From assembly GCA_947480335.1 (NCBI GenBank), contig CANKCB010000005.1:8018-72017 (forward strand): a stretch of DNA of 64,000 bases, read 5' to 3'. Both the position numbers and the translations under genes were made by a program. Below the pieces are notes generated by a model that worked only from the letters and a program-made list of their open reading frames with translations, was not told the DNA's origin and searched no databases. Shown in pieces: positions 42,684-63,358 of this stretch. Within the stretch, counting starts at the first letter, position 1; every line of letters begins with the position of its first letter. The stretch comes from Gammaproteobacteria bacterium. GTDB lineage: Bacteria; Pseudomonadota; Gammaproteobacteria; Eutrophobiales; Eutrophobiaceae.

Positions 42684-44747
42684 TTATTTCACTGCGTAGG
42701 CTTCACAGGAGACATAGGCAGACTCGGACAGTGGCAAGACCGCCTTGCCGTTAACAAAACGATAACTGATCCGGCACATGTCGAGAATGACGATCCAGAG
42801 CATGGAAGCAAATAATACTGTCAACACCGCATCGATACGTTGACCGACAATCAGCTGTGGTGCCACGTTTGCCAGTTCCGGTGCCAGCGTTCCGGCGGCA
42901 AGCTTGCTGGCCATATCCGTCGCACCGGCGAGAAATCCGATTTGCGGATTGCTGCTAAACACCTTTTCAAAGGAAGCCCAGGTACAAATAATGGCAATCC
43001 AGGCCAGCGGCAATGCCGTCACCCATACATGGCGTTGCTTGCCCATCTTGATCAATATGCCGGTTGCAACCGACAGCGCAATCCCGGCGAGCAGCTGATT
43101 GGCGATACCAAATAATGGCCACAGGATGTTGACGCCACCCAGCGGATCCATCACGCCCTGGATCAGGAAATATCCCCAGGCCGCAACAAACAGTGCGCTG
43201 GACAAGATAGTGACGGGATAGGACGAAATATCGCCCATTGGTTTCCAGACAGTCTTCAAACAATCCTGCAGGATAAACCGTCCTACGCGGGTACCGGCAT
43301 CGAGTGTGGTCAGAATAAACAACACTTCAAACATGATGGCGAAGTGGTACCACATGGCCATCAGGTTCTTGCCAAAACTGCTGCTGAAAATGGCGGCCAT
43401 GCCAACCGCCAGCGAAGGCGCACCACCGGTACGTGCAAACAGGGTTTTCTCACCCATCTGTGTTGCCAGTGCCTGCATCTGTTCTACAGTGACCATAAAT
43501 CCCCAGGAATTGATCATATTGACCGCCTCACCGGCAACCTTGCCAACAACTCCACCCGGACTATTGATTGCAAAGTAAACTCCCGGCTCCAGCGTACAGG
43601 CTGCCACCATGGCCATGATGGCAACAAACGATTCCAGTGCCATACTGCCATAGCCGATCATACGGACATCGGCCTCGTTGCTAAGCAGTTTCGGTGTCGT
43701 GCCAGAAGCGATTAAGGAATGGAAACCGGATATCGCACCGCAAGCAATGGTAATAAACACAAACGGGAAGACATCGCCCTTGAAGATGGGGCCGGTACCG
43801 TCAATAAATTGTGTCAATGCCGGCATTTTAATGGCCGGTGCATAGAGCATGATGGAAAAGGCCAGCAGGATAACCACTCCGATTTTCAGAAACGCGGACA
43901 GATAATCACGCGGTGCCAGTAACAGCCAGATGGGTAATACCGCAGCAATAAAGCCATAAATAATCACAAACCAGGCACAGGTCATGGCATTCCAGTCAAA
44001 CAACGGTGCAAGCGTACTGTTGCCATGAACCCAGCCACCACCCACGACACACATCAACAGCAGCACAAGACCGATGATCGAACCTTCCAGAATCCGTCCC
44101 GGACGTATATTACTCAGGTAAATTCCGACCAGCATCGCGGCCGGTATCGTACCCAACACCGTGGTTGTGGCCCAGGGACTGTTTTTCATTGCATTGACTA
44201 CGACCAGACCGAGCACGGCCACGATTACCGTGATAATCATCATCGTACCGAAAATCGCTGCCCAGCCACCGACCGGTCCAAGCTCGTCTTTTGCCATCTG
44301 TCCCAGACTGCGCCCATCCCGCCGGAGTGAACAGAACAGCACTACCAGATCCTGCACACAGCCGCCCAGTACCGATCCAATCAGGATCCACAGCGTACCG
44401 GGCAGATAGCCAAACTGTGCCGCCAGCGTAGGCCCGATTAATGGACCGGGTCCGGCAATCGCCGCAAAGTGGTGTCCGAAGACTATCCATTTATTGGTAG
44501 GGATATAGTCGCGGTTATTATTCAGTCGCACCGCTGGAGTGGCACGGGTGGCATCCAGTGTCAGTACCCGCGCACAAATCCATGCGCTGTAAAACCGGTA
44601 TGCCAGCAGGTAGACACAAATGGCTGCAACAATAAACCAGACGGCATTGATTGACTCATCGCGGAAGATAGCAATATTGGCCAGTGCCCAGGCACCTACC
44701 AGTGCAATGGCTGACCACAATATTATCGATGGCCCTGTACGTTTCAT
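42684..44747 (-). CDS. cstA: Carbon starvation protein A (peptide/pyruvate transporter)
   Basis: 687 aa polytopic membrane protein; the N-terminal region (MKRTGPSIILW...DYIPTNKWIVFGHHFAAIAGPGPLIGP) is characteristic of CstA. Confidence 0.9.
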   Translation of the reverse strand: MKRTGPSIILWSAIALVGAWALANIAIFRDESINAVWFIVAAICVYLLAYRFYSAWICARVLTLDATRATPAVRLNNNRDYIPTNKWIVFGHHFAAIAGPGPLIGPTLAAQFGYLPGTLWILIGSVLGGCVQDLVVLFCSLRRDGRSLGQMAKDELGPVGGWAAIFGTMMIITVIVAVLGLVVVNAMKNSPWATTTVLGTIPAAMLVGIYLSNIRPGRILEGSIIGLVLLLMCVVGGGWVHGNSTLAPLFDWNAMTCAWFVIIYGFIAAVLPIWLLLAPRDYLSAFLKIGVVILLAFSIMLYAPAIKMPALTQFIDGTGPIFKGDVFPFVFITIACGAISGFHSLIASGTTPKLLSNEADVRMIGYGSMALESFVAIMAMVAACTLEPGVYFAINSPGGVVGKVAGEAVNMINSWGFMVTVEQMQALATQMGEKTLFARTGGAPSLAVGMAAIFSSSFGKNLMAMWYHFAIMFEVLFILTTLDAGTRVGRFILQDCLKTVWKPMGDISSYPVTILSSALFVAAWGYFLIQGVMDPLGGVNILWPLFGIANQLLAGIALSVATGILIKMGKQRHVWVTALPLAWIAIICTWASFEKVFSSNPQIGFLAGATDMASKLAAGTLAPELANVAPQLIVGQRIDAVLTVLFASMLWIVILDMCRISYRFVNGKAVLPLSESAYVSCEAYAVK

Positions 44748-49528: not shown

Positions 49529-49553
49529 GGTGTGAAGTGACAGGTGTGAGGAG
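49529..49553 (+). repeat. Degenerate GTGAGG-type heptamer copy directly after the alaC stop
   Basis: GGTGTGAAGTGACAGGTGTGAGGAGT. Confidence 0.5.
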
Positions 49554-49695
49554 TTTGACCACGTCATTCCAGTAACAGCAAGTATCCAGTTGAATTAAAC
49601 TCGCTGATAGCAAGCCTTGATGTCATCTGACAGGTGATTTTACTTTACTGGCTTCCTGCTTTTGCAGGAGTGACGAATAAGGAGCAATAATAAAG

Positions 49696-51013: not shown

Positions 51014-51086
51014 GAGTGAGGGGTGAGGCGTGAGGGGTGGAAGTAGATGTGAAGAGTGAGGAGTGAGGAGTGAGGGGTGAGGAGTA
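51014..51086 (+). repeat. Tandem heptamer array (GTGAGGR) about 10 units, beginning 8 nt after the hom stop
   Basis: GGAGTGAG GGGTGAG GCGTGAG GGGTGGA ... GTGAGGA GTGAGGA GTGAGGG GTGAGGA. Confidence 0.9.
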
Positions 51087-55295: not shown

Positions 55296-56394
55296 ATGCT
55301 GGAAATTACCTCTGTCATTGCGCATATAAAGGATATCAAGGGAAGGACTGAAGCCCTGAGGAGGTATCTTTGAATACGATCTCAAATCGGAACGACTGGT
55401 AGAAGTCACTCGCGAACTGGAATTACCCAACGTCTGGGATGAACCGGAACGGGCACAGGCACTGGGCAAGGAAAGGGCCACGCTGGAAAAAATCGTCAAA
55501 ACCCTCACCGACCTGAACGCCGGTATCGAGGATGCCGAACAGCTGCTGGCAATGGCCAAAGAAGAAAACGATGCGGAAACGGTCGCTGGTGTCGATCGCG
55601 ATCTGGATCAACTGCAAAAGCATCTCGAAGATCTGGAATTTCGCCGCATGTTTTCCGGCGAGATGGACCCGAACAGCGCCTTTCTGGATATTCAGTCCGG
55701 CTCCGGTGGCACTGAAGCTCAGGATTGGGCGGAAATGTTGCTCCGCATGTACACCCGTTGGGGTGAAGCGCACGGCTTTGGCATCGAATTGGTCGAAGTC
55801 TCTCCGGGTGAGGTTGCCGGTATCAAGAGTGCGACCATCAAATATAACGGTGAGTATGCCTATGGCTGGCTGCGGACCGAAACCGGAGTGCATCGACTGG
55901 TGCGTAAATCCCCGTTTGATTCCGGTAATCGTCGTCATACCTCGTTTGCTTCAGTATTTGTGTCTCCGGAAATTGATGACGATATCAATATCGATATCAA
56001 TCCGGCCGACCTGCGTATTGATACCTATCGTGCCAGCGGTGCCGGTGGTCAGCACGTGAACAAAACCGATTCCGCCATCCGTATTACACATATCCCGAGC
56101 GGGATTGTGGTGCAATGTCAGTCGGATCGATCCCAACACAAGAATCGCGACAGCGCCCACAAGCAGTTACGTGCGAAGCTATATGAAATGGAAATGCAAA
56201 AGCGTATGGTCGCGCAGCAAAAACTGGAGGATACCAAGTCTGATATAGGCTGGGGTAGCCAGATCCGCTCGTATGTGCTCGACCAGTCGCGTATCAAGGA
56301 TTTACGCACCGGTATTGAAAACACCAATACCCAGTCGGTGCTGGACGGTAATCTCGACAAGTTTATGGAAGCGAGTTTGAAGGCGGGGTTATAG
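55296..56394 (+). CDS. prfB: Peptide chain release factor 2, with programmed +1 ribosomal frameshift at CTT TGA A (55368-55374)
   Basis: Frame-0 start [25 protein letters not shown] stops at TGA (55371-55373). The +1 frame continues [34 protein letters not shown]..., collinear with E. coli RF2. Internal SD-like AGGAGG lies 3 nt upstream of the shift site. SPF and GGQ motifs are present. Confidence 0.9.
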
Positions 56395-56395
56395 A

Positions 56396-56530
56396 GTGTG
56401 AGGGGTGAGGAGTAAGGGGTGAGGAGAGGAAGGTGAGGGGGGCGAGGAGAGGAAGGTGAGGGGTGAGGCGTGAGGGGAGAAGTGAGGAGTGAGGCGTGAG
56501 GGGAGAAGTGAGGAGTGAGGGGTGAGGAGT
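56396..56530 (+). repeat. Tandem heptamer array (GTGAGGR and variants), about 19 units, starting 2 nt after the prfB stop
   Basis: GTGTGAGGGGTGAGGAGTAAGGGGTGAGGAGAGGAAGGTGAGGGGGGCGAGG...GTGAGGCGTGAGGGGAGAAGTGAGGAGTGAGGGGTGAGGAGT. Confidence 0.9.
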
Positions 56531-56565
56531 CTGGAAGATAAGTTAGAGTCCACAAAAATTGAAAC

Positions 56566-56645
56566 CGTCATTCCCGCGAAGGCGGGAATCCAGTAGACTC
56601 AATCCTGTTCTCCTGTGGGTCACTTTCACCCGTAGGACGAAAGTG
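56566..56645. repeat. REP-like paired hairpins upstream of lysS (ATTCCCGC-GAAG-GCGGGAAT and CACTTTC-N10-GAAAGTG)
   Basis: A 15-nt core of the first hairpin recurs in inverted orientation at 63256-63270. Confidence 0.6.
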
Positions 56646-58270: not shown

Positions 58271-58295
58271 AACCACTGCAACATTTTAACAGGGT

Positions 58296-58580
58296 GGTGC
58301 ACTTGTTTTGTGAACTTAGGTTATCCACGAATAAACAAAATCCCGCCGTATGAGTCTCTGCTCACGCAGCCCAGGAATGACGGAATAATCATCGTGGCAC
58401 TTATGCCCCAGCCGTCATTTTTGCGAACGCGACCCACAGGATGTGGGAAATGTCGCGAGAGGACATCGATGTCCGGAGCGACCAGAATCCAGCAATAAAA
58501 AAAAATTCAGCCGCACAAGGCTTTGCTAACGCGGCCCGGAATGTCAAATGCCGGAGAACTACCTTATTCGCAGACAAAAA
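58296..58580 (+). ncRNA. Candidate Csr/Rsm-family (CsrB/RsmY/RsmZ-like) GGA-rich sRNA; boundaries approximate
   Basis: About 11 GGA motifs in ~285 nt on the plus strand, including CCCACA-GGA-UGUGGG (58433-58447), which matches the CsrA SELEX ligand ACARGGAUGU in a hairpin loop. Non-coding (stops in all frames). Ends near a strong hairpin (58588-58615). Confidence 0.3.
58414..58490 (+). repeat. Dispersed ~75 bp repeat element R (copy 1) carrying the ACAGGAUGU hairpin and a GGACATCGATGTCC palindrome
   Basis: Near-identical to 61134-61210. Partial copies at 59654-59680, 60568-60590 and (inverted) 61362-61403. Confidence 0.85.
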
Positions 58581-58584
58581 AACA

Positions 58585-58615
58585 GGTGGCGCCCGTCAAG
58601 GCACCACCTGTCAGT
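58585..58615 (-). terminator. Rho-independent terminator of the OmpA-family gene
   Basis: On the minus strand, CAGGTGGTGCC-TTGACG-GGCGCCACCTG hairpin followed by TTTTTTT. Confidence 0.75.
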
Positions 58616-58627
58616 ACTATAGGACGA

Positions 58628-59494
58628 TTAGTTCTGTATTCTGAAATCTACTCGTCTGTTTTGCGCACGGCCTGCATCGGTATCGTTGCTGGCCACAGGT
58701 GAACCTTCACCCATACCCGATGCTGAAAGGCGATTGGCAGCAATTCCATGATTGACAAGGAAGTTCACCACCGTTTCCGCACGACGTTGTGACAAAGCCA
58801 TGTTGTAAGCGTCAGAGCCACGGCTGTCAGTATGGCCTTCAATCTTGACGATGATTCCGGCATTATCCTTCAGCATCTTCACGGCCTCATTCAGCTTGCC
58901 TGTCGCAGTTGAGGTCAAGTCAGACTTGTCATAGGCAAAATTCACCCCTTCCAGGCTGAAGATTACATGACAACCGCGTTCGTTAACGGCCTGTCCCATC
59001 GGTGTATTCGGGCAATCATCGCTGCCATCAATCACACCATCCCCGTCAGTGTCCAGCGGGCAACCCGTGCTATTCACGGCTACACCACGCGGCGTATTCG
59101 GGCAACGGTCATTGTTGTCGGTTACGCCATCGCCATCACTGTCGAGCGGACAACCGGAAGCATTCACTGGCGTACCACGCGGAGTATTCGGACAGTTGTC
59201 CATATCATCCATCACACCATCGCCATCGCTGTCCATCATCTTCTTTTGTGCAACCGGTGTTGTCTTTTCATCCTGACACAAGTAGTAGCCAACGAGCCCA
59301 CCGAGTATGGCACCACCACCTATCGCTGCCTTGTTATTCGAAGCCAGAGCACCGGCACCGGCACCCGTTGCCGACATAGCCAAAAAGCATATCCCTTCTT
59401 TGGTAATTGAGCTGTCGCTACCGCCCGTGGTCGCACACCCTGACATAAAACTTGTGATACAAATCAATGCTATTAAAGTGAATTTACTCTTCAT
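58628..59494 (-). CDS. OmpA-family lipoprotein with thrombospondin type-3 (Ca-binding) repeats
   Basis: Lipobox FMSGCATTG and a Gly-zipper segment; three DxDxDGxxDxxDxCPNTP repeats; C-terminal OmpA domain (TDSRGSDAYNMALSQRRAETV). Confidence 0.85.
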   Translation of the reverse strand: MKSKFTLIALICITSFMSGCATTGGSDSSITKEGICFLAMSATGAGAGALASNNKAAIGGGAILGGLVGYYLCQDEKTTPVAQKKMMDSDGDGVMDDMDNCPNTPRGTPVNASGCPLDSDGDGVTDNNDRCPNTPRGVAVNSTGCPLDTDGDGVIDGSDDCPNTPMGQAVNERGCHVIFSLEGVNFAYDKSDLTSTATGKLNEAVKMLKDNAGIIVKIEGHTDSRGSDAYNMALSQRRAETVVNFLVNHGIAANRLSASGMGEGSPVASNDTDAGRAQNRRVDFRIQN

Positions 59495-59816
59495 AAGTTG
59501 TCTCCTGATTTTGACGGTTAGTCCAAATCTAGACTCAACCCATATACCTGGCTGTAACCTAAACCTGAATCCGAGACCTTATTAACATTGTTCGAGTAGG
59601 TTCGTATGTGCGTTGACATACAGAAGGCGAATTTGGCAAAAAACCACATCGTGTTTTCTCCTTCTGTCATTCTGGCGAATGCGACCAGCCTCCATTTCCC
59701 AGTCGTCATCCCGGGGCCGCGCATGCGGAACCCGGGATCAAGTAAAATAACACCGCCGCATGGCAGTTATGAGTGTCGTCATACGAATTCCTATGCACTG
59801 TATCCGAACTACGACC

Positions 59817-60158
59817 TTATTCTTCGTTATGTAACTTGTTAACTTCACTTAACAGAACTGGTAATTTACTTTGTAATAAATCCCAAACCAGATAATCGTC
59901 AATCTCGGCATAACCATGGATTAAAATATTCCGGAAATTAACAAGCTTGCGATAATCGGAAATATGGATGACAACTGCAGGATCAAGCTTTGCTAATTTA
60001 CTGATAGCTTCTCCAATAATTTCAAACTGTCGTTCTATGGCAGACCTGAGCAGTGGATCGTTGAGATAGTCATTTTGAGTCTTGCCGCCTGAGAAGCGGT
60101 CAAGGTAGGTGGCTGCACGCTTTATATCGAACAGATATTTCCGGACTTCAAGCTGCAT
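59817..60158 (-). CDS. hepT: HepT-like (DUF86) toxin of a type VII HepT/MntA toxin-antitoxin pair
   Basis: RxxxHxY-type motif context (FRNILIHGYAEID) at the C-terminus; overlaps the upstream nucleotidyltransferase gene. Confidence 0.75.
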   Translation of the reverse strand: MQLEVRKYLFDIKRAATYLDRFSGGKTQNDYLNDPLLRSAIERQFEIIGEAISKLAKLDPAVVIHISDYRKLVNFRNILIHGYAEIDDYLVWDLLQSKLPVLLSEVNKLHNEE

Positions 60159-60456
60159 AGAGCAATTCTCGCGACTGCTCAAGTTTTTCCAGGAAATAGG
60201 GGTTTTTTAGTGCCCGTGTGACGACGAGGTCAACCTTCCGATTGAGCAAAGACTCGAGGTCTTCATACAAACCAAAATAATGGTCTGTGTATTCACCCTG
60301 TTTCAGTTGCTCAAAATCCACGAGAAAGTCGATATCACTGTTGACATTATCGAATTTTCCACTCGCAGCAGAACCAAACAATTCCAGCCTGCTGACATGA
60401 TGCTTGCGGCAGAGGGCAACGATTTGCGGACGGAAATTATCAAGTATCTGGATCAT
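60148..60456 (-). CDS. mntA: MntA-like nucleotidyltransferase antitoxin
   Basis: GSAASGKFDNVNSDIDFLVDF is the minimal nucleotidyltransferase motif (GSxxRG...DxD); 102 aa. Confidence 0.75.
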   Translation of the reverse strand: MIQILDNFRPQIVALCRKHHVSRLELFGSAASGKFDNVNSDIDFLVDFEQLKQGEYTDHYFGLYEDLESLLNRKVDLVVTRALKNPYFLEKLEQSRELLYAA

Positions 60457-60769
60457 GATTCGAATTTTAGCTTGTATACAGCAATAATCACAAATTTATT
60501 CCCCGTGCTTTGCAGGAAGGCTTTTTCCGAGTAGAAAATGCCTGCCCTGCGGGCAGTGCATAATTAGCACCGTCATACTGGCGAACGGCAGTATCCAGTA
60601 GTGCAAGCGCCAGAGTCTCCCGCCCATAAATGTCTGCCTTCCAGGCAGTGACCGAAAATGTCTTATACAATCTGTCGTAACAACCACTTGACATAAGTAA
60701 CCTATAAGTTACCATAACGCATGATTACACGGACTGTGATTGAATATATAGACGAGAGAGCTGATTAAC

Positions 60770-61099
60770 TTGGCATTAACCAGACATTTTAAAGATACGG
60801 TTACTGCACGTGTGCAAAACGACCCGGCATTTCGCCGTGCCTTGCTGGTTGAAGCAATAGAAACATTTCTAAATGGCGATATCGATACAGGCAAAGCGGT
60901 ACTGCGCGACTATATCAATGCGACTATCGGTTTTGAGAACCTGGCAAAAAAACTGGGTAAAGACAGTAAAAGCATCCACCGAATGCTGGGACCACAAGGC
61001 AACCCACGCGCAGACAATATCTTTACCATATTCAAAATCCTCCAGGACGGAGACCATTTATCGCTACAGGTCAGGGTAGATAGAAGAAGAGCCGCCTGA
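60770..61099 (+). CDS. Addiction-module antidote protein (HTH, HigA-family), orphan; TTG start
   Basis: 109 aa; the C-terminal ...SKSIHRMLGPQGNPRADNIFTIFKIL... resembles the probable addiction module antidote family. A GTAACctataaGTTAC palindrome and TTGACA lie upstream. No cognate RelE/ParE-like killer gene is adjacent. Confidence 0.6.
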   Translation: MALTRHFKDTVTARVQNDPAFRRALLVEAIETFLNGDIDTGKAVLRDYINATIGFENLAKKLGKDSKSIHRMLGPQGNPRADNIFTIFKILQDGDHLSLQVRVDRRRAA

Positions 61100-61133
61100 T
61101 AATGCCTGCCCTCCGGGCAGTGCATCAAATGTG

Positions 61134-61210
61134 TCGTCATACTGGCGAACGCGACCCACAGGATGTGGGAAATGTCGCGAGAGGACATGGATGTCCGGAG
61201 CGACCAGTAT
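61134..61210 (+). repeat. Dispersed ~75 bp repeat element R (copy 2)
   Basis: GTCATACTGGCGAACGCGACCCACAGGATGTGGGAAATGTCGCGAGAGGACATGGATGTCCGGAGCGACCAG; differs from copy 1 at a few positions. Confidence 0.85.
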
Positions 61211-61283
61211 CTAATCAAATAACCGCCGAATGGCGGTAGAAAAACAACTTAACAGTAGGGTGTTGCACTTGTTTCGTGAACTT

Positions 61284-61481
61284 AAGGAAGGATTGTTCAC
61301 TGGCCGCTCGTCCTTTGACTCCAATAGTCACCCTTGGTCTCCGTTCCGGACTCGACTCTACGACATTTTCCACGTCCTGTGGGTCGCATTCGCCAGTATG
61401 ACGAAGGAAGGATTGTTCACTGGCCGCTCGTCCTTTGACTCCAATAGTCATCCTTGGTCTCCGTTCCGGACTCGACTCTAC
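61284..61481 (+). repeat. 120 bp-period tandem duplication: two 78 bp units (1 mismatch) separated by a 42 bp inverted fragment of element R
   Basis: Units at 61284-61361 and 61404-61481 (AAGGAAGGATTGTTCACTGGCCGCTCGTCCTTTGACTCCAATAGTCA[C/T]CCTTGGTCTCCGTTCCGGACTCGACTCTAC). The minus-strand RNA of each unit has 5 GGA motifs. Confidence 0.85.
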
Positions 61482-61632
61482 CGATTCCATCCATGGAATC
61501 GTACCGCTTAAATCAATGTAAACGCCTCACACATCCAAGTGCTTCGCGGCATTATTTATTCCGAAATGTGTATACTAAAGAAAAGGTATTATCTAATCTC
61601 ACTAATCTATTGATTGCACGTTGGCTTGAATA

Positions 61633-62907: not shown

Positions 62908-63358
62908 CAAAGGTTAAATAGGGTCATGTTAAAAGGGATCGGAGACAATGAAGAATAATTCCCGGGTGACTCCGACCAATTTTCCTATGGGAAGGTGTCA
63001 GAGCTTTTAATATTGAGTCTGATGAGGAATGGCTAAAGAATGGTTCTGATAATAAACAGGCAAGAATACCGGGCCTGGCTGATATCCTTGGTTTGAGTGT
63101 GAATAATATTTTACCCATCCGCTACCAGTTAATTCACCGGACGGCATCTGCGTTACTGGGGGCGGAAAGGTTTTGCATTATTACCGCCATTCGGCGGTAT
63201 TATCTGACTAGATTCCGGGCACCGCATACGCGGCCCCGGAATGATGAATTAGCGCCTTCGCGGGAATAACGGCGTGAGTAATGCCGCATCAACTAGAAGA
63301 ACAAAATCAAGACGAAAGGTTTAGAATACCCTCTCCAGAATAACCATAAGAGGCAACC

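Follow-up and report, generated by a model that had tools for sequence, protein, structure and literature searches.

The repeat element described here, which we call R, lies in a 64,000-nt stretch of DNA from an uncultured gammaproteobacterium (assembly GCA_947480335.1, contig CANKCB010000005.1, positions 8,018 to 72,017 of the forward strand; hereafter 'the window'). Judged from its sequence, the chassis of R is probably a hairpin repeat of the Neisseria Transformation Sequence (NTS) or Ssn-related motif (SRM) type, the kind of repeat that is the target of the Ssn nuclease, and this hairpin carries nested within it a modular cassette of smaller hairpins with GGA in their loops.

Anatomy of element R

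A repeat search of the window, together with alignment, identified two full copies of R on the forward strand that are identical at 72 of 77 bases (94%), as well as an inverted copy of 44 nt (61361-61404) that is 93% complementary to the second of them. A preliminary description of this DNA had reported the same two near-identical copies slightly displaced, at 58414-58490 and 61134-61210, and had also reported the inverted copy, which proves to belong to a longer minus-strand GGA array (61284-61554). The window holds three occurrences of the 27-nt core of R, GCGACCCACAGGAYGTGGRAAATGTCG, where 100 dinucleotide-preserving shuffles give an expectation of 0.00. The element consists of a 27-nt hairpin of NTS/SRM type with a cassette of 51-52 nt between the loop and the 3' arm, and the cassette is flanked on both sides by a 6-nt direct repeat, GCGACC, and contains two small hairpins with GGA in their loops: hairpin 1, CGACCCACAGGAYGTGGGAAATGTCG, and hairpin 2, whose family consensus is GGACAGGAYGTCC. 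The full copies and their cassettes are as follows (scores are from a covariance model).

58413-58489, + strand: R copy 1, with a degenerate 5' arm (ATTTTTG for ATACTGG); 94.9 bits
58430-58481, + strand: cassette of R copy 1, with hairpin 1 at 58428-58457 and hairpin 2 at 58461-58474, the latter having lost GGA from its loop (ATCGAT)
61135-61211, + strand: R copy 2, the best preserved, with arms at 61139-61145 and 61204-61210; 102.1 bits
61152-61203, + strand: cassette of R copy 2, with hairpin 1 at 61150-61179 (GGA loop) and hairpin 2 at 61183-61196 (UGGA loop)

Both full copies retain the CCCACA-GGA-TGTGGG hairpin, as previously described, and it is weakened in the inverted copy (CCCACAGGACGTGGA). 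The palindrome GGACATCGATGTCC, said earlier to be shared by every full copy, is perfect in copy 1 only (58461-58474); its counterpart in copy 2, GGACATGGATGTCC, is the hairpin with the UGGA loop. Copy 2 folds into a closing stem and the two hairpins (-29.1 kcal/mol and z -2.4 as RNA, z -4.0 as DNA). In an alignment of 16 copies (alignment A1) the closing, outer stem is 95% paired with three covarying pairs, one of which is AU in nine copies, GC in two, UA in two and CG in one, and another UA in 11 and CG in four; over the whole structure 90.8% of cells are paired, as opposed to at most 40% in slid-partner controls. The comparison of G.U with A.C mismatches, meant to separate selection on RNA from selection on DNA, gave equal counts in this alignment (12 of each), and the internal cassette hairpins hold too few mismatches for it.

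Copy 1 begins 226 nt past the lysS stop codon, and copy 2 begins 36 nt past the stop of an open reading frame (ORF) at 60770-61099, each on the same strand as the gene before it. The recurring WVAFASMT (or WVAFAKMT) in ORF translations, which had been taken for a pseudo-peptide, is indeed the reverse complement of the R 5' arm and hairpin 1. Read in this way from the sequence it is not a real peptide, and the ORF calls that contain it are among the spurious ones that arise here because of these repeats.

The chassis as a probable Ssn-type hairpin

The literature on the ATTCCC-N8-GGGAAT core led us to the NTS system (PMC11893778). The nuclease of that system, SsnA, is a single-domain GIY-YIG protein of 94 aa; it binds the NTS hairpin only in single-stranded DNA and on just one of the two strands, and it makes its cut a few bases 5' of it. 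Cutting needs the GTC that precedes the palindrome and binding needs the C that follows, while the identity of the loop is dispensable and artificial loop extensions are tolerated in vitro (PMC11893778). The NTS consensus is CGTCATTCCCGCGMAVGCGGGAATCYRG and the broader SRM pattern is HGTCWYN(0-2)YYVSBRHN(0-5)WNVSBRGN(0-2)RNCYNB; published units are 20-50 nt long, and the ssn gene typically has repeats on its flanks (PMC11893778).

The window contains such units. That at 56566-56593 is the published Neisseria NTS consensus exactly, and it and the unit at 60571-60598 match the SRM pattern, where shuffled windows gave 0.4 matches each; many more matches are present in related loci. The basic unit, as defined by surveying the window and those loci with regexes and folding, is 27-28 nt long and consists of CGTCAT, a stem of 7-9 bp, a GNRA-like loop, the complementary stem and CCAG (for example CGTCATACTGGCGAACGCCAGTATCCAG). 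Its arms vary and yet stay complementary (ACTGG, ACCGG, GCTGG, TCTGG and TCCCGC, as well as a 38-40 nt type, TTCCGGGG), and many units end in CCAGTAG. Removing the cassette from R leaves precisely this example unit as it occurs in locus L004, base for base. In alignment A1 conservation of the CGTC positions is complete or no lower than 90%, and the C that follows the stem never varies.

Related contigs also carry a candidate partner gene beside such units. In locus L016, on a contig that also bears an R-type element 7.5 kb away, a cut 92-aa single-domain GIY-YIG ORF (Pfam E 2e-18) is directly followed by several hairpin units. In L118 a 96-aa GIY-YIG homologue (P0212, assigned by its source to 'Gammaproteobacteria bacterium RIFCSPLOWO2_02_FULL_47_50') has units on both flanks, in inverted orientation and with R's own ATACTGG/CCAGTAT arms. 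The gene in L016 was found by tblastn with a consensus query; a GIY-YIG regex and small-ORF screen, made before that, had found nothing.

The plain units, the conserved bases around the stem of R and, in relatives, the flanked GIY-YIG gene all agree with the NTS/SRM type. Several observations weigh against this assignment. R itself does not match the literal SRM pattern, its loop being about 60 nt where 0-5 are allowed; the 5' arm of copy 1 is broken, and copy 2 ends in CCAGTATCTAA rather than CCAGTATCCAG; and no Ssn gene was seen in the approximately 85 kb of the window's own genome that were examined. An Ssn chassis also leaves unexplained the identity of the 26-nt hairpin 1 across assemblies that differ widely in base composition, which is described below.

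With GTC and C kept, and loop extensions tolerated in vitro, the chassis would still serve as an Ssn site in DNA. As such a site, R would mark a region that varies between strains and make it unstable, in the way of the NTS/dRS3 repeats of Neisseria, which are enriched beside variable genes. The cassette itself would spread among existing hairpin copies through recombination or gene conversion, and not by transposition of the whole element.

Distribution and modularity of the family

With the 26-nt core of hairpin 1 as query, a single scan of 185,579 species-representative genomes returned 29 loci in 12 assemblies, all from uncultured 'Gammaproteobacteria' of groundwater, lakes and glacier streams, although some of these metagenome-assembled genomes (MAGs) are mislabelled as Klebsiella or Enterobacteriaceae. 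As many as seven contigs of a draft bear the core, with at least 6-7 exact-core copies per draft assembly, and further family copies lie just past the end of the window in its own genome (L030/L117). The preliminary description had proposed a dispersed repeat, and these copies show that such a family is genuine and not confined to this one locus. The 26-mer core had no match in viral contigs, nor did a long variant give a blastn match in plasmids. There was no element in 783 kb from metagenome relatives whose LysS is 57-70% identical to that of the window, so the family is lineage-restricted.

Family members form a size series, from the plain hairpin of 27 nt through R (78 nt, the shortest cassette-bearing member) to arrays of 125-330 nt with 6-16 GGA; long variants hold 10-16 GGA in 180-330 nt. 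The left end is fixed (host arm and hairpin 1), as is the right end (GAGGACAGGAYGTCCGRAGCGA and host arm), and between them lie from 0 to 6 or more extra hairpins, such as CGCYTACATGGATGTARGCG and CGATTCCAKGGATGGAATCG, together with linker modules. Both end hairpins have ACAGGAYGT in common, GTA(G/C) comes after every internal hairpin, and modules are joined at CG|GTA. The same cassette occurs, at an equal insertion point, inside two types of host hairpin, the ATACTGG type and a ATTCCGGGG type (L016, L019 and L027), and is thus a separable module. The 26-nt hairpin 1 is identical among assemblies and loci of 43 to 62% GC; conservation to the base over this range implies that the cassette has a second, sequence-specific partner.

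Target-site duplications were absent from all 15 full copies inspected, in which there were only chance 3-6-mers away from the ends. Among the fetched loci we found no pair of filled and empty cassette sites apart from the single unit at 59666-59690, the only place among them where the pattern of a cassette-less unit with a single GCGACC (GGYGAANGCGACCRG) occurs.

In one MAG, two contigs (L002 1150-1560 and L003 6720-7040) have in common a larger composite with inverted-repeat ends, CTCTGATTAAGT...ACTTAATCAGAG, within which lie an R-type element and, inverted, a plain unit. The element is 78 nt long in one version; in the other it is 176 nt long and is accompanied by an extra inverted GGA module in the spacer.

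Resemblance of the cassette to CsrA ligands

The earlier suggestion that R contains a CsrA-ligand-like hairpin turns out to be stronger than was claimed. Without exception, the cassette hairpins of the family have CA(N)GGAUG in the loop and a covarying stem, which makes the resemblance to CsrA ligands a strong one, and 18 distinct internal hairpins all have an (N)GGA loop and a CA...UG closure while their stems differ by compensating changes. The CsrB repeat is CAGGA(U/A/C)G, and the consensus of CsrA ligands from in vitro selection (SELEX) is RUACARGGAUGU (PMC7652899); the loop words of the cassettes, CAGGA(U/C/A)G, CAUGGAUG and CAGGGAUG, equal the former and agree with 11-12 of the 12 positions of the latter. 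In 42 elements (5386 nt) the sense strand counts 256 GGA and 89 TCC, or about one GGA per 21 nt. Cassette-bearing elements lie mostly 13-110 nt past stop codons, and 23 of 34 are oriented with the upstream gene (p 0.058), or 17 of 23 when only upstream genes of at least 150 aa within 150 nt are counted. Plain units have no such bias, with 15 co-oriented and 12 opposed.

The host belongs to a class in which Csr systems are usual (PMC7652899). No csrA was found by tblastn with three CsrA/Rsm proteins in the window and 1.2 Mb of fetched loci, a sample far too small to establish absence. Searches of Rfam gave nothing for the window, whether at the gathering threshold or with E relaxed to 10, nor for eight long-variant loci at E up to 1. 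Upstream of the elements there is no GacA/UvrY box (TGTAAG-N6-CTTACA, with at most 2 mismatches), no promoter-like site was called next to R, and neither R copy is followed by a sense-strand terminator. The cassette stems are of 6-8 perfect Watson-Crick pairs with no G-U, in contrast to SELEX ligands of CsrA, whose stems mostly have at most 4 base pairs (PMC7652899), and selection on single-stranded DNA would account for perfect stems just as well.

The gene for the carbon-starvation transporter CstA lies in the window at 42687-44747 (- strand). In E. coli cstA is a classic target of CsrA; here the leader has no obvious cluster of GGA sites, and when it was examined for CsrA-type sites as an indication that a Csr system is active, nothing convincing was seen.

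Alternative explanations

It is possible, though in our judgement not probable, that the cassettes are working decoys or recruiters of CsrA/RsmA in 3' untranslated regions (UTRs) or intercistronic RNA, a reading of the sequence that is compatible with an Ssn chassis. Each stem-closed module would present 2 to 16 high-affinity GGA hairpins, and the copies would act as a distributed sponge or in the control of mRNAs. On read-through from the upstream gene, one might suppose, the stem-closed cassette would display its CsrA-type hairpins and could bind or titrate CsrA. The loop words, the density of GGA on one strand only, the tendency of that strand to follow the upstream gene and the class of the host all speak for this, as does the spacing of 28 nt between the loop GGAs of R, since one CsrA dimer can bridge sites 10-63 nt apart. 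It is less easily squared with hairpins far more stable than typical CsrA ligands, with a conservation of hairpin 1 that far exceeds what a GGA loop requires, and with a hairpin 2 in R copy 1 that has no GGA; the failure to locate csrA is uninformative. More tentative still is a two-level reading, again drawn from sequence, in which a lineage of uncultured Gammaproteobacteria from freshwater and groundwater has Ssn-target repeats loaded with CsrA-binding arrays: they would be nuclease sites in single-stranded DNA that shape recombination and, at the same time, a dispersed 3' UTR sponge and means of gene wiring for CsrA, spread by recombination of the repeats. The copies might instead be small-RNA genes in their own right, of the CsrB/RsmZ type and duplicated recently, as the preliminary description offered for one of its two readings. 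Long variants do reach a CsrB-like density of GGA, and a terminator-like hairpin (61237-61222) follows the minus-strand array 61554-61284 on its strand. We consider such genes improbable given the lack of any Rfam match (even at E 1-10), GacA/UvrY box, promoter-like site or sense terminator, the number of exact-core copies in each draft assembly and the nesting of copies within a DNA repeat, mostly just past stop codons; nor are the copies recent, as orthologous sites in relatives attest (see below).

The other class of explanation invokes mobile DNA. The cassette might be a small non-autonomous element of the single-strand kind (HUH, IS200-IS605 or RAYT-like), with hairpins 1 and 2 as the left and right ends that one enzyme recognizes. 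Its insertion, at a set point within the loop of Ssn hairpins, would cause no duplication, and the internal hairpins would be amplified cargo. This would account for fixed end modules around a variable middle, for the ACAGGAYGT common to both ends, for the equal insertion point in two host hairpin types, for the absence of target-site duplications and for perfect Watson-Crick stems, and the GTA(G/C) after each internal hairpin with joints at CG|GTA would suit an enzyme that cuts or copies DNA. We nevertheless regard it as unlikely: no Y1/HUH transposase motif was found in about 0.33 Mb of fetched loci (by regex only), no polymorphic filled/empty pair was found besides the single unit at 59666, and a transposase accounts for two end hairpins and not for 6 or more internal ones that all keep GGA. 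That R is instead an element of the REP/REPIN type, moved by a RAYT transposase like the REPs of E. coli and Pseudomonas, is improbable to a greater degree. The units are indeed short intergenic palindromes with covarying arms, often in head-to-head pairs, and many copies end in CCAGTAG. However, what is conserved beside the stem (GTC in front, C behind) is the signature of the Ssn motif, units fit the SRM pattern, the gene that they flank is GIY-YIG rather than RAYT, and regexes for HUH and YxxNP gave no candidate in the same 0.33 Mb. In E. coli REPs, moreover, GTAG stands on the other side of the hairpin from that seen here, where it lies 3'. The remaining reading of the preliminary description, a classical MITE (a miniature transposable element with inverted repeats) derived by deletion from an insertion sequence with a DDE transposase, is very improbable. 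R is small, multicopy and intergenic with inverted ends (ATACTGG...CCAGTAT), but none of the 15 full copies has a target-site duplication, no parent insertion sequence was seen, and the arms covary between copies as would not be expected of ends bound by a transposase. The supposed terminal inverted repeats are the arms of the NTS/SRM hairpin and, by themselves, make up a complete and abundant 27-nt repeat. We accordingly rejected both a MITE and a known Csr RNA as identities for R (no target-site duplications; no Rfam match).

Other family members in the window

A full-sensitivity covariance-model scan of the window returned eight family members, every one within 56.5-63.3 kb; in 1-56 kb there was no significant copy, only a decayed pair at 49562-49592 (+) and 49645-49675 (-). 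Besides the two copies of R, the following features belong to the family.

56566-56593, + strand: plain NTS-type hairpin unit of 28 nt, CGTCATTCCCGCGAAGGCGGGAATCCAG; fold -13.7 kcal/mol, z -3.96
56611-56640, - strand: decayed 5' half of R (arm and start of hairpin 1), 30 nt at 83% identity, facing the unit at 56566 head-to-head
59666-59690, + strand: R-type unit without cassette, GTCATTCTGGCGAATGCGACCAGCC, one GCGACC retained; 17.2 bits
59704-59745, + strand: 40-nt hairpin unit of the ATCCCGGGG...CCCGGGAT type, inverted-repeat partner of 63180-63247; 17.9 bits
60571-60598, + strand: plain hairpin unit of 28 nt, CGTCATACTGGCGAACGGCAGTATCCAG, matching the published SRM pattern; 18.5 bits
61284-61403, - strand: composite unit of 5' arm, hairpin 1 (61361-61386) and a 78-nt GGA-rich module; 37.3 bits
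61404-61554, - strand: GGA-hairpin array, 5'-truncated, containing GCACTTGGATGTGTG, a decayed CGTTTACATTGATTTAAGCG and CGATTCCATGGATGGAATCG
63205-63246, - strand: 40-nt hairpin unit, CATCATTCCGGGGCCGCGTATGCGGTGCCCGGAATCTAG, inverted-repeat partner of 59704-59745; 14.7 bits
63246-63272, - strand: decayed NTS-type unit, CCGTTATTCCCGCGAAGGCGCTAATTCA, 20 nt at 95% to 56565-56592

R is thus multicopy, as had been recognized, with more members than were listed at first (those at 56566, 56611, 59704, 63205 and 63246 and the long minus-strand array). Neither of the two sites that had passed for truncated copies is a truncated R: the one at 60571-60598 is a plain unit, itself complete, and the other, 59666-59690 (given earlier as 59654-59680), is an R-type unit that has no cassette.

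In the composite unit at 61284-61403, GCCAGT of the 78-nt module pairs with ACTGGC of the 5' arm, and the motif GTAGAGTCGAGyCnGGA is common to this unit and to long variants in L001, L005 and L029. The 78-nt module is present twice on the minus strand, its second copy (61404-61481) ending the array, while the start of the array, AATGCCGCGAAGCAC(A/T)TGGATGTG, is the same as in arrays of L023 and L027. Units stand head-to-head at 56566(+)/56640(-), at 49562(+)/49675(-) and in L116 (9850-9950).

Other small repeats occur among these units. Many units are followed by an A-rich spacer and a GC hairpin, ACCGCCGAATGGCGGT or TCGCCGAAGGCGT (59742-59770, 61215-61247, 63173-63200 and L117 19430-19600), and on the opposite strand this module reads as an intrinsic terminator aimed at the adjoining hairpin unit. 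The imperfect palindrome ATGCCTGCCCTSCGGGCAGTGCAT (60538-60561 and 61102-61125) lies 10-13 nt 5' of two hairpin units and is a further motif type of the mosaic. A 28-nt direct repeat, AGGGTGKTGCACTTGTTTYGTGAACTTA, has copies at 58291-58318 and 61257-61284 that are 93% identical.

Genomic setting and age of the copies

The nearest named relatives by LysS are Thiogranum, Sedimenticola and Thiodiazotropha, at about 70% identity. In two closer relatives, L114 and L115 (LysS 96% and 86% identical), the Glu_synthase gene directly follows lysS; in the window's genome some 10 kb missing from both of these lie between the two genes (58188 to beyond 64000; L117 6556-16700). This segment encodes an OmpA/TSP3-like protein, a HepT/MntA toxin-antitoxin pair, an HI0933-like flavoprotein and others, and there are hairpin units in nearly every one of its spacers. 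A repeat-rich variable segment of this kind fits the reported position of NTS/dRS3 repeats beside variable genes. What distinguishes L030 from L117, metagenome versions of one genome, is a toxin-antitoxin pair next to a TauE gene or inside it; the TauE product has 247 aa in L030 and 152 aa in L117. The 109-aa ORFs that follow lysS in the window and in L116 were compared and are unrelated.

The spacer between prfB and lysS contains a head-to-head pair of units in the window, in L114 and in L116, and as these sites are orthologous in relatives whose LysS is 81-96% identical (96% for L114, 81% for L116), the copies are old rather than recent. After lysS, L114 has a unit in the same orientation as R copy 1 and with a likewise degenerate 5' arm, but with a different cassette, which suggests that cassettes have been exchanged between copies.

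Tandem octamers, (GTGAGGRG)n, begin no more than a few bases from stop codons and always lie on the gene strand. They occur in the window at 56398-56533, 51016-51084 and, weakly, 49529-49555, and in relatives at L117 16107-16156, 18274-18309 and 19621-19642(-) and at L114 914-949 and 4345-4366, the genes before them being prfB, hom, PRA-PH, Glu_synthase and argG. After prfB the tract extends over about 135 nt in the window, 60 nt in L114 and 40 nt in L115. These octamers are rich in GGA and in Shine-Dalgarno-like sequence, and hairpin units often come next. The prfB ORF itself (RF2, 55552-56394) has 280 aa in the window and in L116 and 314 aa in L115, a difference that probably reflects the usual programmed +1 frameshift near the 5' end.

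Comparison with known systems

The closest parallel is with the NTS/SRM-SsnA system (PMC11893778). The two have in common the order CGTCAT, stem, loop, stem and CCAG, with one window copy that equals the Neisseria NTS consensus; units that are oriented, asymmetric and clustered around variable genes; and, in related contigs, repeats on the flanks of a 96-aa GIY-YIG gene. They differ in the loop, for which 0-5 bases are published, whereas R has a structured cassette of 51-52 nt beside its 3' arm and its relatives have up to about 300 nt; no natural loop cargo or GGA hairpins are reported there (PMC11893778).

The dRS3/NIME repeats of Neisseria resemble the present family in the ATTCCC-N8-GGGAAT core (here at 56571-56590) and in being an intergenic mosaic of several small repeat types beside variable genes. 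In NIMEs, whole dRS3 palindromes flank RS units of 50-150 bp; here, in contrast, the extra sequence splits and sits inside a single palindrome, and the host is a gammaproteobacterium, not Neisseria. The regulatory RNAs CsrB, CsrC, RsmY, RsmZ and RsmX are likewise gammaproteobacterial arrays of hairpins that expose CAGGA(U/A/C)G or ACA-NGGA-UGU at a similar density of GGA. The cassette is unlike them in having no Rfam match or Gac-type promoter, in its many copies inside a DNA repeat and in its longer perfect stems, and its likeness to their ligand sites is one of sequence.

Like the REP, BIME and REPIN-RAYT elements, the units are short covarying intergenic palindromes that form inverted pairs and mosaic clusters, with a single-strand-specific enzyme thought to act on the hairpins, but here the associated gene is GIY-YIG and not a Y1 HUH gene, and the flanking signature differs. 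The BOX elements of Streptococcus pneumoniae are intergenic, fold as one stable structure and consist of fixed left, variable internal and fixed right modules. The R family has this same modular build, though BOX is unrelated in sequence, belongs to a host of another phylum, is not nested in another repeat and follows no GGA-loop rule.

Searches of the literature on CsrA together with REP, MITE or repeats, on the loop motif and on follow-up work on Ssn gave no description of such a cassette. As far as the sequences tell, then, the chassis is a known kind of repeat, and its combination with a GGA cassette is one that we found in no description.

For the Ssn/NTS system, which was described only in 2025 (PMC11893778, Nat Commun 2025) and whose repeats have been treated as bare hairpins of 20-50 nt (PMC11893778), R and its relatives suggest that the loop of a natural Ssn-type hairpin can hold structured, modular cargo of up to about 300 nt. 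Should a DNA enzyme be the partner of that cargo, the cassette would represent a nested mobile module of a new kind, one that targets the hairpin loop of another repeat. If the partner is CsrA, this would be the first case in which CsrA-binding modules are spread genome-wide by a DNA repeat family, and it would offer a testable route by which genes may enter and leave a post-transcriptional regulon.

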